Position numbers and translations under genes: made by a program. A stretch of DNA of 64,000 nucleotides, taken from an uncultured Chromatiales bacterium (GTDB lineage: Bacteria; Pseudomonadota; Gammaproteobacteria; CBFCYW01). The DNA lies in the NCBI GenBank assembly GCA_965602395.1, contig CBFCYW010000001.1:2846-66845 (forward strand), given 5' to 3'. The notes beneath the pieces are model-generated. The model was not told the origin of the DNA. It ran no database searches and saw only the letters and a list, made by a program, of their open reading frames with translations. Shown here one piece after another: positions 3,012 through 48,754 of this stretch (positions are counted from its first letter, which is position 1; the number at the start of each line of letters is the position of its first letter).

Positions 3012-3992
3012 GTGCGCCCCGCGATGCCGACCCGACTGCGCCGCACAGCCATGTTGCCCCGCCCGATAGCCCATTCCCCGCTGCTCGGATTGCTGCTCGC
3101 CAGCGCACTGTCGCTGCTGCTCGCCCCGCTGGCGGCGGCTTCGGTTTTGCAGCCGGGCCAGCGCGTCTGGCTGCGGATGGATAGCGACAATCTGCGCGAC
3201 GACGGTTACGCCGTGGGTCTGCTGCTTGAAGTCACCGGCGACAGTGCCACGCTGCGCGTCAAGGAGTGGGTCGAAGGCCCGGGGCGCACCCTGTACGGCA
3301 GTTGCCGCACCGGTCCGGGCGGTTTTCAGGCAGCGGTCGGTGCCGCTGAGCTGGCTGCCGAGGCCGCCACCGGAAGCGAGCCGGCGATCGCCGGCGTGCC
3401 GCTGGCGCTGCTCAGCGATTGGCGCAGCGGACGCCACCGCTTTTTACAGCGCGAGCAGTTGGCGACGATTTTCTTCCGCTGGAACGGCGATGCCGAGCAA
3501 CAATCCATCGGCCTGCCGGCGCGGCGCGCGCGGATGGCCGCGGCGCGCGCCGCCGAGCTGGGGCTGCCGCGGGTGGCGGCGGCCTTCGCCCTGGTCGAGG
3601 CGGATCTGCGCGCCGCCGGTGCCGATGGCTTTCCGCGGCCCGCGGTGCAGCAGATAGCGGCCTGGCCGGCGGCGCTGGACGGTGTCGAGGCGGTGCTGGT
3701 GAGCTACCCCGATGTGGCGCTGGAGCTGCGTCCGATGGCTGCGGATCTGCTCTGGCTGGCCTTGGAGCGGCTGGCCCTGCGGATGCGCGCGCGGCTTGCC
3801 GAGCTGGCGGCGCTGGAGCCGGATCTGGACGCGGCATTGCGGCGCTGGCCGCAGCTGCTGGAGGTGTGGCGCGAGCATCGGCACTGGCTGCGATTGCCGC
3901 CGCTGCAGCGGGGGGAGCCATCGAAGCGGGCGGCGGGGTTGGCCACCGGCGCCGAGGCGCGCCGCGCCTGGGCGGCAATCGATAATTTTTAG
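3012..3992 (+). CDS. hypothetical exported protein
   Basis: N-terminal hydrophobic signal-like segment (LLGLLLASALSLLLAPLAAASV). Codon bias resembles the neighbouring genes and I recognise no family. An alternative start is at 3051. Confidence 0.45.
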   Translation: MRPAMPTRLRRTAMLPRPIAHSPLLGLLLASALSLLLAPLAAASVLQPGQRVWLRMDSDNLRDDGYAVGLLLEVTGDSATLRVKEWVEGPGRTLYGSCRTGPGGFQAAVGAAELAAEAATGSEPAIAGVPLALLSDWRSGRHRFLQREQLATIFFRWNGDAEQQSIGLPARRARMAAARAAELGLPRVAAAFALVEADLRAAGADGFPRPAVQQIAAWPAALDGVEAVLVSYPDVALELRPMAADLLWLALERLALRMRARLAELAALEPDLDAALRRWPQLLEVWREHRHWLRLPPLQRGEPSKRAAGLATGAEARRAWAAIDNF

Positions 3993-45410: not shown

Positions 45411-45690
45411 CGTGGCTTCCTTGTTCGTGGTTTGCGCCTAGCGTAGCGAGGCGTCGGGCTGCGGATTGTGACGCGTTGGTTAAACGCAAGCCCTTGATCG
45501 GCATGAAGCAGTGAGTTGTTGAACAGTTCCGTAAGGTGATTTTTCCGGCCTCGCATGAACTAATCCCCACCGACCCAGTCACAGGGGCCATCTGGGGGTT
45601 GTCGCTCTGCGCCGACGCTTCGGATGAACGCAAACGCCAAGACCGAGCGCCCGACTACGGGCTATCCAAAACTATCTGGAGATGACTAAT

Positions 45691-45945
45691 ATGAACACTG
45701 CCAAGAAGACTTCTGGTTTCGCCCTCGCCGCCGCCGCTGCCGCGATGCTCGCTACCGCACCGATGGGTGCCGTGCACGCCGGTGCCGACAAGGGCAAGTG
45801 TGTCGGCGCCAACAGCTGTAAGGGTCACAGCGACTGTGCCACTGCGACCACCTCCTGCAAGGGCCAGAACGCCTGCAAGGGCCAGGGCTTCATGAAGATG
45901 ACCAAGGCCGAGTGCGAAGAAGCCGAAGGCACCTTCGAGGGCTGA
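45691..45945 (+). CDS. exported six-Cys RiPP precursor, bufferin/HvfA-like (Sec signal, SPase I type)
   Basis: GGAG lies 9 nt upstream of the ATG at 45691. The signal [30 protein letters not shown] precedes GAD. Core: [50 protein letters not shown]. It lies directly upstream of the DUF692/DUF2063 genes. Confidence 0.75.
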   Translation: MNTAKKTSGFALAAAAAAMLATAPMGAVHAGADKGKCVGANSCKGHSDCATATTSCKGQNACKGQGFMKMTKAECEEAEGTFEG

Positions 45946-45960
45946 TTTCGATCCCCAGCC

Positions 45961-46006
45961 ACGCCCGGATCGCAAACCGTGCAGCGGTTGCGTATCCGGG
46001 CGTTTT
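45961..46006 (+). terminator. intrinsic terminator-like hairpin between the two precursor genes (likely attenuator)
   Basis: ACGCCCGGAT pairs with ATCCGGGCGT (10 bp). An 8-bp inner stem with two bulges and a 5-nt loop follows, then TTTT. Confidence 0.5.
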
Positions 46007-46051
46007 CATACCCATAAATCCGCGCTGTGACGCGGGGGAGACCAAGAGAAA

Positions 46052-46321
46052 ATGAGTACTGTAAGCAAAACCACTGGATTTGCCCTCGCCGCAGCCGCGG
46101 CCACAATGCTGGCAGCCTGTTCGTCCACTGGCGGCGGCCTCTACGGCAGCAGCGCCAGCGCCGAAACCGGCAAGTGCATCGGCGGCAACAGCTGCAAGGG
46201 GCACAGCGATTGCGCCACCGCAACCACCTCTTGCAAAGGCCAGAACGCTTGCAAGGGCCAGGGCTTCCTGAGCATGACCAAGAGCGAATGTGACGCCGCC
46301 GGCGGTACCTTCGAAAGCTGA
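46052..46321 (+). CDS. exported six-Cys RiPP precursor paralogue with lipobox (predicted lipoprotein form)
   Basis: GGGGGAG RBS. The signal [23 protein letters not shown] has a canonical L-A-A-C lipobox, followed by the S/G-rich linker [16 protein letters not shown]. Core: [50 protein letters not shown]. Confidence 0.75.
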
Positions 46322-46382
46322 TCGACTCCACTCGTCGCGCCGCGTGCGCGGTGCGGCGTTGGCCGCAGCGAGGCGACCGCGC

Positions 46383-47240
46383 ATGACGCAATCCGATCAT
46401 TCCGAACGCCCCTTTCTGGGGTTCGGTCTCGGCCTGCGGCCGGACCACTACCCGACGATCGTCGAGCAGCGCCCGGCTGTGGACTGGTTCGAGATCCTCT
46501 CCGAGAACTACATGATCGAGGGTGGCAAACCGCTGCACTTTCTCGATCACATCCGCCGCGATTACCCGCTGGCCATGCACGGCGTTTCCATGTCGCTGGG
46601 CAGTACCGACCCGCTGAATATGAGCTATCTGCGCGATTTGCGCGCACTGATCGACCGCGTGCAGCCGGTCTGGGTCTCCGACCACCTGTGCTGGACCGGT
46701 GTCGATGCCCACAATCTGCACGACCTGCTGCCGTTGCCCTACACCGAGGAGGCCATCGAGCACGTCGTCGAGCGGGTCTGTCGCGTGCAGGATTTTCTCG
46801 GCCGGCGGATCCTGCTGGAGAATCTATCCAGCTACGTCACTTACACCGAATCGGCGATGAGCGAATGGGAGTTTCTCAGCGCCATTGTCGAACGGGCCGA
46901 CTGCCTGATTCTGCTCGATGTGAACAACATCTTCGTCTCCGCCGTGAACCACGCTTTCGATCCGCTCGACTACCTGCGCGGCGTGCCCGCAGAGCGCGTC
47001 TGGCAGTTTCACGTCGCCGGCCACAGCCGCAACGCCAGCGGGCGGATTCTGGTCGACACCCACGACCAACCGGTGTGCGATGAGGTCTGGGCGCTGTACG
47101 CCGAAGCCGTGCGCCAGTTCGGACCGGTTTCGGCGATGATCGAGCGCGACGGCAATATTCCGCCCTTCGACGAACTGTTCGCGGAGCTGCAACAGGCGCG
47201 GCGCATCGCCGAGCCGATCCTCGCCGAGCACGCCGCGTGA
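46383..47240 (+). CDS. DUF692 / MNIO (multinuclear non-haem iron oxidase, MbnB/BufB-like) RiPP maturase
   Basis: Motifs [61 protein letters not shown] and QFHVAGHS are the UPF0276/DUF692 TIM-barrel signature. Confidence 0.9.
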
Positions 47241-48025
47241 GCGGTCTGCGCGGATTGCAAAAGGGCTTTGCCGCAGCGCTGCTGCGCGGCGAGCCGGCGA
47301 TTGCCGAACGCATCGTCTCGGATGACGCCGGCAGCGCCGGCGAGCGTCTGGAGATCTACGCCCACGCTTACGTGGCACGCCTTCAGGAAGCGCTGGAGGT
47401 GGATTTTCCGGGCTTGCTGGCGCTGCTCGGCGAAGATTTCTATCGCGCCACCCGCGAGTACATCCGCGACAACCCCTCGCACTACGCCTCGGTGCGCTGG
47501 TACGGCAACCGTTTTGCCGACTGGCTGGCGGCCGCCGAACCCTGGTGTCAGCGACCGGAACTGATCGAGCTGGCGCGCTTTGAGTGGGCGCTGGCAGCGG
47601 TGTTCGATGCCGCCGATGAGCAGCTCGCCACACTGGAGCAGCTGATGGCGGTTCCACCCGAGCACTGGGGCGGCATGCGACTGCACCCGGTAGCGGCGAT
47701 GCAACGGCTCGATCTGCACTACAATGTGGCGCCGCTGCGCGAGGCTGCACGCAACGGCGAGCCGTTGCCGGAGCTGTCTGGCGATGATCAGCCGGTAGCC
47801 TGGCTGGTGTGGCGCAAGGGGCTGGACCCGCACTGGCGCTCGCTGGAGGTCGATGAGGCATGGGCGCTGGATCGCTGTGCCGAGGGCGCCGATTTCGCCG
47901 CGATCTGCGCGGGGCTGTGCGAATGGGTCGACGAGGCCAATGCACCATTGCGCGCAGTCGGATTTCTACAGCAGTGGCTGGGTGATGAGCTGCTGAGCCG
48001 GATCGAGCCGGCTACCCCATCGTGA
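47237..48025 (+). CDS. DUF2063 family protein (BufC/HvfC-like partner of the MNIO enzyme)
   Basis: The GTG start overlaps the DUF692 stop (GTGA). Motifs [42 protein letters not shown] and ELARFEWAL. Confidence 0.8.
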
Positions 48026-48086
48026 GCATTCTGCCGCCGCGCGGGTGGCGCTAGAATGCGCCCCCCTGAAATTTGCCGAGGCCGCG

Positions 48087-48344
48087 ATGATGTCCGATAA
48101 ACCCGCCAACGATGAGCCGCGACAGCCTGCCGGCGAGCCGCAGCAGGCCGAGCCGGGCCTCGGTTTCTGGGGTGTCACCAAAAGCATTCTATGGGCCGGC
48201 CTCGGGGTGCAGAGCGAGGCCAATCGCCAGCGTGATTTCAAACAGGGAAAGATGGTCCACTTCGTCATCGGTGGGCTGATTGGCACGCTGCTTTTCATGC
48301 TCGTCGTGTGGCTGTGGGTGCAGTCGATGCTCGCCGGTACCTGA
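48087..48344 (+). CDS. DUF2970-like small membrane protein
   Basis: The segment FWGVTKSILWAGLGVQSEANRQRDFKQGKMVHFVIGGLIGTLLFML matches my memory of DUF2970. The ATG at 48087 or 48090 follows a GAGG. Confidence 0.6.
   Translation: MMSDKPANDEPRQPAGEPQQAEPGLGFWGVTKSILWAGLGVQSEANRQRDFKQGKMVHFVIGGLIGTLLFMLVVWLWVQSMLAGT

Positions 48345-48401: not shown

Positions 48402-48754
<353 letters not shown>

Follow-up and report, generated by a model that had tools for sequence, protein, structure and literature searches.

Two tandem bufA2 genes, each encoding a precursor of a bufferin, occupy positions 45691–46321 of a 64,000-nucleotide stretch of DNA from an uncultured Chromatiales bacterium (the whole stretch, 64 kb in length, is called the window below). 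Based on the analysis completed here, this interval is probably the head of a Buf2-type operon, in which copy 1 would yield a soluble product and copy 2 a lipid-anchored one, a single BufB/BufC pair would mature both, and a hairpin would set the ratio between them; we assign this reading a probability of roughly 75%. Deployment of the domain in two forms, free and tethered, is the most economical reading of the locus. The original prediction for this DNA had proposed that the same modified peptide is deployed in both forms. This holds in that one precursor is of the signal peptidase I (SPI) type and the other of the lipobox type, but the two mature domains are not the same, since they differ at nine of 48 residues, every one of which lies outside a shared 27-residue core.

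The elements of the cluster all lie on the forward strand. Copy 1 (45691–45945) encodes an 84-amino-acid (aa) BufA2 bufferin precursor and copy 2 (bufA2', 46052–46321) one of 89 aa with a predicted Sec/signal peptidase II (SPII) signal. Both peptides pass the curated cut-off of 60 bits of the NCBIfam model NF050166 (Cu_RiPP_BufA2, "BufA2 family periplasmic bufferin-type metallophore"), with 87.9 and 82.7 bits, respectively, and are thus real genes, not chance open reading frames. The homologue search returned 3660 relatives of the precursor. The six Cys residues of copy 2 (C42, C48, C54, C61, C67 and C80) are invariant columns across 42 aligned homologues, and copy 1, whose mature peptide has 54 aa, carries the equivalent six. 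Next come bufB (46383–47240), for an MNIO-family bufferin maturase of 285 aa (NF050167, MNIO_BufB, 398.6 bits versus a cut-off of 310; PF05114, 8e-114), and bufC (47237–48025), for a DUF2063 partner protein of 262 aa (PF09836, 5.5e-19), the start of which shares a 4-nt overlap with the stop of bufB. BufC matched the NCBIfam HvfC model NF050145 only weakly, at 36.2 bits and well short of the 142-bit cut-off, and we could not find a DoxX gene among the genes next to the cluster, where DUF2970 and hfq follow. The locus represents an established kind of Buf2 cluster, with bufA2, bufA2', bufB and bufC and, as usual in such clusters, no DoxX. A search of PDB sequences with the family profile gave no relevant solved structure.

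The two precursors are alike in having an n-region with K and an Ala-rich h-region, which are followed by V-H-A|G in copy 1 and by L-A-A-C in copy 2. The cleavage-type signal that had been claimed for copy 1 is present as a V-H-A SPI site, with a predicted cut after A30 of the Sec/SPI signal peptide (45691–45780), so that the mature peptide would begin GADKGKC. For copy 2, an L-A-A-C lipobox and a 16-residue Ser/Gly-rich tether had been claimed, and both were found: the lipoprotein-type signal (46052–46117, a rule-based call) overlaps the lipobox (46109–46120, with Cys23 at 46118–46120), and the tether, S24–T39 (46121–46168), has exactly 16 residues and leads into the six-Cys domain. Under the lipobox rule of the PROSITE PS00013 type, the motif [LVI][ASTVI][GAS]C ends the h-region, the Cys lies at 15–35, and K or R occurs within the first seven residues. 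Copy 2 conforms to this rule (LAAC, Cys23, K6 and an h-region without charged residues) and copy 1 does not; copy 2 is accordingly named here a predicted lipoprotein, that is, a Sec/SPII substrate for which acylation and LspA cleavage are predicted. In Escherichia coli, the residue after the lipobox Cys (+2) steers sorting, and when Asp is absent the lipoprotein goes to the outer membrane via Lol. The earlier wording, that copy 2 is tethered to "a membrane", therefore proved too general, in that the Ser at +2 would, by analogy with E. coli, predict an outer-membrane anchor via Lol.

Start codons were weighed for both copies. Copy 1 likely starts at 45691, because a GGAG lies 9 nt before that ATG, whereas the ATG at 45682 directly abuts the GGAG. 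For copy 2, one automatic gene call (P0001) begins at Met19 and gives 71 aa, and the other calls give 89 aa. We prefer the 89-aa form because the 18 upstream codons are conserved and the ATG at 46052 is preceded by a Shine-Dalgarno region (GGGGGAG/AAGAGA). The Met19 call cuts off the n-region and most of the h-region, so automated surveys could miss or misclassify the lipoprotein signal of this copy.

Syntenic orthologous loci exist in two further lineages: L081-83, with about 67% GC and a full-length orthologue synonymous divergence (dS) from the window of 0.5–0.6, and L085/L089, with 52% GC and synonymous sites saturated against the window, which come from a metagenome associated with a sponge and a circular metagenome-assembled genome (MAG) of 4.29 Mb. 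In both, the order is inositol-monophosphatase gene (minus strand), SPI copy, lipobox copy, bufB, bufC and DUF2970. The duplication had been called old, and it is: the pair of SPI and lipobox copies is shared with the L089 lineage and thus predates the split from it. Conservation of the lipobox Cys and the ratio of non-synonymous to synonymous rates (omega) had been named as checks on the original prediction, and both turned out in its favour. The Cys is kept at the same position, as LAAC in L081-83 and LGAC in L085/L089, and full-length omega between the window and the L081 orthologues is about 0.12 for copy 1 and for copy 2 alike, so both copies are functional genes. The tether is identical in the window and L081 (4429–4476 of that locus), with six synonymous and no non-synonymous differences over the 19 codons of Cys23–Lys41 that include it; in the L089 lineage the tether differs (ASSGHDEGSSDP). 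The Chromatiales MAG L002 (3896–5887), the closest named relative among the matches listed, has a BufB about 71% identical and a single SPI-type bufA2 before bufB. With only one SPI-type gene in L002, the duplication and the lipobox copy appear to be confined to a sub-clade.

The cores of 27 codons (45811–45891 in copy 1, including Cys II–V, which are the predicted 5-thiooxazole sites, and 46187–46267 in copy 2) encode identical protein. As had been counted before, they differ at nine nucleotides, with nine synonymous and no non-synonymous differences. By Nei-Gojobori counting (S=16.3, N=64.7), none out of nine has P of about 5e-7 under neutrality, a value to be read with the fact that the core was picked post hoc, being the longest run of identity. 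When all 48 codons of the mature domain are counted, 14 synonymous (sd) and 11 non-synonymous (nd) differences give dS=0.75 and omega=0.14 (binomial P=1e-4); constraint is significantly stronger in the core than in the remainder of the domain (Fisher P=0.001). These counts indicate that the core is under strong purifying selection in both copies.

The original prediction had ascribed the identity of the cores to conservation at the protein level rather than to recent gene conversion. This stands for the window itself, in which the proportion of synonymous differences in the core (pS = 0.55) means that no recent conversion has occurred, but it does not carry over to comparisons across lineages, where the cores group by genome. 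We give even odds to the view that core identity owes at least as much to concerted evolution, that is, conversion between adjacent copies, as to independent purifying selection, in which case the nine synonymous differences would date the last conversion and not the duplication. Quartet sites in the core group by genome rather than by signal type in window/L081 (4:1), window/L089 (15:2) and L081/L089 (19:2), whereas the signal-peptide region groups by type in window/L081 (4:2) and window/L089 (3:0); in L081/L089 the grouping of this region is by genome (5:1), but confined to third codon positions, so this is probably compositional. The C-terminal tail has no clear type signal (one site by type versus zero, five and seven by genome). 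Core states specific to a genome are common to both of its copies: H, TT and NAC in the window; L, TS and NSC in L081; IHC, VNAC and KGT in L089. The paralogues of L081 (4001–4629) share the two-step Ser codon AGT (ACC in the window), as well as CTC, TCC and GGA, and diverge from each other by a dS of only 0.29, against 0.36–0.66 between orthologues, which points to conversion between the tandem copies in the L081 lineage. Adjacent mixed pairs, moreover, have domains 77–93% identical within a genome versus 45–61% across lineages, and the two domains of L093, which are separated by bufBC, are just 55% identical. Against this, many of the by-genome third-position sites relative to L089 can be explained by the GC gap (52% versus 67.5%), the shared amino-acid states could reflect parallel adaptation to one shared BufB/BufC, and the sequences compared are very short. 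To the extent that concerted evolution shaped the core, the paralogue dS dates the last homogenization rather than the duplication. A tree of these domains is uninformative, both because of their shortness and because of concerted evolution; a single ancient origin of the lipobox copies was considered and found unsupported, as the domains cluster by genome and not by signal type.

The frequency of such pairs was surveyed in 80 loci among the matches listed from a scan of GTDB species representatives. At least 12 of these 80 hold two or more bufA2 genes, mostly SPI plus SPI, for example in Bradyrhizobium. Mixed pairs were found in Methylophaga sp. OBS4 (L010), with a lipobox copy and then an SPI copy directly upstream of bufB and bufC; in a Cocleimonas MAG (L016), with an SPI copy and two lipobox copies in the same position; and in a gammaproteobacterial metagenome lineage (L093/94), with the order SPI-bufA2, bufB, bufC, lipobox-bufA2 and DUF2970. 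The metagenomic loci L095 and L091 hold a lipobox-lipobox tandem and an orphan lipobox gene, respectively. As far as signal types can be read from sequence, mixed SPI/SPII pairing is a minority arrangement that recurs in at least four gammaproteobacterial lineages. Canonical lipoboxes are present in 15 of the 119 best homologues (13%), with the Cys at 20–27, Ala/Gly/Ser-rich tethers of 14–24 aa, and A, N, S, G or T but never Asp at +2. Lipoboxes detected by pattern in L019, L032, L039, L052, L054, L067, L068 and L077 were rejected as false, as they fall within the domain or in upstream sequence of a stop-to-stop reading frame. Some further lipobox proteins came to light in these searches. In the Thiotrichaceae MAG L001, a lipobox peptide (LLISGC; 3571–3810), with a C-terminus of short SC[KS]GK-type repeats (KDSCKGKDSCKGKNSCSGK), is encoded directly upstream of a lipobox BufA2, and may be a lipidated repeat-type Cys-Lys precursor. 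Double-domain BufA2 proteins with 12 Cys also exist: P0018 (152 aa) has the lipobox LAGC, and that of Dokdonella (L071, 3905–4456) is apparently of the SPI type.

Between copies 1 and 2 lies a terminator-like hairpin (45961–46008), with a stem of about 20 bp and one bulge, followed by TTTT, that is, by only four U. RNA folding of 45940–46055 gave -50 kcal/mol (z=-3.5), and the consensus terminator scan did not list this hairpin. In L085/L089, a canonical terminator with U7 occupies the same place (z=-4.7); in L081, a hairpin and U-run are present there, with a fold that is not distinct from that of shuffled sequence (z=-1.3; 22 of 200 shuffles are equally stable). Nothing comparable exists between copy 2 and bufB (z=-0.1). 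Because a terminator-like hairpin follows copy 1 and none follows copy 2, copy 1 is suggested to be the abundant product, and the hairpin is likely an attenuator that would set how much copy 1 is made relative to copy 2 and the enzymes. For neither copy did the consensus promoter scan find an upstream sigma-70 promoter. A candidate promoter motif, GAACTAA-N14-GTCACA (45557–45583), lies about 108 nt 5' of the copy 1 start; it is the single match in the window, versus 0.01 expected, and is invariant in the window, L081 and L089, although the flanking intergenic DNA has diverged (GC 67% versus 52%). Of 94 loci, 10 carry the motif upstream of bufA2, and each of these belongs to the window's own clade; it was not found there in the other lineages among the 94. 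We take it to resemble the consensus of promoters for extracytoplasmic function (ECF) sigma factors of the sigmaE/AlgU type, and regard it as a candidate only. An ECF-type promoter would fit the ECF control of the Caulobacter buf genes.

The maturation of bufferins provides the basis for the functions proposed here. The bufferin system was described in 2024, and the precursors use Sec signal peptides; in Buf1, BufB and BufC jointly convert the central Cys residues to copper-binding 5-thiooxazoles, whereas Cys I and VI of Buf2 remain unmodified, probably joined in a disulfide, and its central Cys residues show the same -4 Da shift (PMC11626156). Expression of bufA2 is induced by copper, and modification of Buf1 does not need the signal peptide, so a swap of signal type should leave maturation unimpaired (PMC11626156). 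In 2026, BufA2 was put among the "Cys-Lys" captophorins, for which Cys-flanking residues matter in MNIO recognition (PMC13097082), and this would explain the family-wide constraint on the CKG-rich core. The roles of the Cys residues in the window copies are predicted by homology to Buf2 of Caulobacter vibrioides (PMC11626156).

For the chemistry, lipidation, localization, copper function and attenuation at the window locus, we infer the following scheme. In the cytoplasm, BufB and BufC would convert Cys II–V, in the CKG and DCA motifs of the core, to 5-thiooxazoles, as homology with Caulobacter Buf2 implies, and once Sec had exported the peptides, Cys I would pair with Cys VI in a disulfide. 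SPI cleavage of copy 1 after V-H-A30 would give a soluble periplasmic metallophore of 54 residues. In copy 2, the lipobox Cys would have to escape the MNIO enzyme; Lgt would transfer diacylglyceryl onto Cys23, LspA would cleave, and Lnt would N-acylate the product. With Ser rather than Asp at +2, this product would be carried by Lol to the outer membrane, where it would sit in the inner leaflet and present a near-identical metal-binding domain on a flexible linker some 16 residues long. Most transcripts would probably end at the hairpin and its U-run, so that the free form would exceed the anchored form and the enzymes. Identity of the cores could be kept by recognition by BufB/BufC together with folding and metal binding, plus occasional conversion between the adjacent copies.

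It is improbable that copy 2 escapes lipidation, with Cys23 being incidental or a seventh modification or disulfide site and SPI cutting elsewhere, for example after A-S-A37, so that both products would be soluble. Residues 35–37 of copy 2 do form an A-S-A|E motif, and its lipidation is a rule-based sequence reading. This A-S-A site, however, lies 15 residues past the end of the hydrophobic region, too distant for a typical SPI c-region, and the L089 orthologue keeps the lipobox (LGAC) with a tether that has no A-x-A site. In the 15 independent homologues mentioned above, moreover, the Cys at 20–27 stands in [LIVMF]-x-[GA]-C and is always followed by a longer low-complexity linker, and their frequency agrees with passages of PMC12452194 in which 16% of Buf2 precursors are given lipoprotein signals by a prediction tool that these passages do not name. 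Even less probable is a redundant or silent copy 2, in which transcription stops after copy 1 or a start at Met19 gives a 71-aa product without a signal peptide. The strong hairpin and U-run upstream of copy 2, and the one automatic call at Met19, are in keeping with this. On the other hand, the same putative terminator also lies upstream of bufB and bufC, which must be expressed, so that some read-through is required in any case; omega of copy 2 against its orthologue is 0.12 with the first 21 codons and the tether included; the copy has been retained across the saturated synonymous divergence from L089; and both the other gene calls, of 89 aa, and the Shine-Dalgarno region favour a start at 46052.

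An operon head with a soluble copy and a lipid-anchored copy thus remains the preferred reading, and several points weigh against it. The signal types were called by the PS00013-type rule and not by a trained predictor, and the outer-membrane sorting of copy 2 was deduced from the E. coli +2 rule, which does not hold universally. AlphaFold2, run on copy 2 with a 42-sequence alignment, gave predicted local distance difference test (pLDDT) scores below 50 at residues 21–30 and 32–35, which is consistent with a flexible linker, but the mean pLDDT is only 61, which makes both the fold and the flexible-tether reading weak. The perfect conservation of the tether relative to L081, despite the six synonymous changes, suggests that it is perhaps more than a passive spacer. 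The putative terminator may mean poor expression of copy 2 and bufBC, or a need for a promoter that was not recognized, and a search of public sequencing runs for 45600–46400 listed none. Copper specificity at this locus, finally, is extrapolated from Caulobacter.

The last gene of the cluster, DUF2970 (48045–48344; PF11174, 5.2e-18), encodes a small membrane protein and likely starts at an internal Met near 48087–48090, because its orthologues have 84–85 aa. Counterparts were found in L081 (6401–6655), L089 (5496–5717), L093 (3447–3665) and L060 (1458–1640). In all, DUF2970 lies downstream of the buf2 cluster in five of about 15 lipobox loci versus none of some 68 loci with SPI copies only (Fisher P=1e-4, with loci counted regardless of kinship and probably only two independent clades represented), and it remains with the cluster although the next flanking gene varies (hfq, PFK or GATase). 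A wider and much more tentative proposal, which we consider possible but doubtful, is that mixed SPI/SPII pairs represent a conserved two-compartment design, in which one maturase would supply both a copper buffer free in the periplasm and a copy of the same metal-binding domain anchored to the outer membrane, an intercistronic terminator would set the ratio, the cores would be matched by conversion or by co-adaptation with BufB/BufC, and DUF2970 would be an accessory specific to the lipidated form.

In the window, DUF2970 is followed in the 3' direction by hfq, hflX, hflK and hflC. A sigma-70-like match (TTGACG-16-TACAGT, 48402–48429) lies about 75 nt upstream of hfq (48503–48754) and suggests that transcription of hfq is separate from that of the buf operon. 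An Rfam scan at gathering thresholds over all 64 kb gave zero matches, so no riboswitch, small RNA or rRNA was recognized.

Bufferins are the largest known family of MNIO-modified RiPPs (peptides made by ribosomes and modified after translation) and constitute a widespread copper-defence mechanism. The present results indicate that some bacteria have long kept a soluble and a predicted lipid-anchored version of one metallophore domain under a single maturase. If this is true, the locus would offer a natural system for asking whether the envelope site of copper chelation matters, and how one MNIO/partner pair handles two substrates with different export signals; for lipidation tests, the pair provides a lipobox bufferin with a soluble internal control. 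A comparable division is known for azurin and the lipid-modified azurin (Laz) of Neisseria, which are, like the window pair, a soluble form and an outer-membrane form, with a lipobox and a low-complexity linker, of a small periplasmic copper protein. Unlike the window pair, they have an unrelated fold and no RiPP chemistry, and the two forms occur in different organisms, not as tandem paralogues.

The nearest known system is Buf2 of C. vibrioides (BufA2/BufB2/BufC2; BUF_6/12Cys), which likewise has a six-Cys Sec precursor followed by MNIO and DUF2063 genes, without DoxX (PMC11626156, PMC12452194, PMC13097082). The window genes also resemble it in the CKG motifs around the central Cys residues and in passing the NCBIfam equivalog models. 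The situation in the window is different in that the cluster has a pair of precursor genes, of which the first carries an SPI and the second an SPII signal, a conserved terminator-like hairpin between them and a DUF2970 gene at the end, and in that no SigF/NrsF genes were seen near the locus. The original prediction had regarded the arrangement as undescribed for MNIO RiPPs. This was too broad, as lipobox Buf2 precursors, tandem genes and lipidation of MNIO RiPPs are all published, although the mixed pair itself was not found stated in the passages searched. Those of PMC12452194 give about 16% of Buf2 precursors predicted lipoprotein signals and describe clusters with tandem precursor genes; copy 2 is one of the former, and the locus one of the latter. 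In PMC13056109, the passages searched list lipobox bufferins and report that two other MNIO RiPPs, DybA and NedA, were lipidated experimentally in E. coli via the lipoprotein pathway, with the lipobox Cys of DybA left untouched by the MNIO enzyme; in this searched literature, the lipidation of bufferins has so far only been predicted.

DybA (of the ChrH-type MNIO) and NedA (a lipidated oxazolin) are thus like copy 2 in having an MNIO-modified lipobox precursor that undergoes cytoplasmic modification and then Lgt/LspA/Lnt processing, and their localization by the +2 rule is discussed (PMC13056109, passages searched). They differ from the window pair in core family and chemistry, with a macrocycle/hydantoin in DybA and EGKCG repeats in NedA, and the same passages of PMC13056109 do not describe pairing with a soluble paralogue of the same core. 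A conserved combination of one SPI and one SPII precursor in a cluster, an inter-copy terminator, concerted evolution of the core and an association with DUF2970 were likewise not found stated in the searched passages of PMC12452194 and PMC13056109. The lipobox and tandem features are reported separately in those of PMC12452194, whereas the window combines SPI and SPII copies in one cluster. In short, the mixed pairing, the terminator-like hairpin, the concerted evolution and the DUF2970 link are incremental additions to the known Buf2 clusters and do not constitute a new kind of system.

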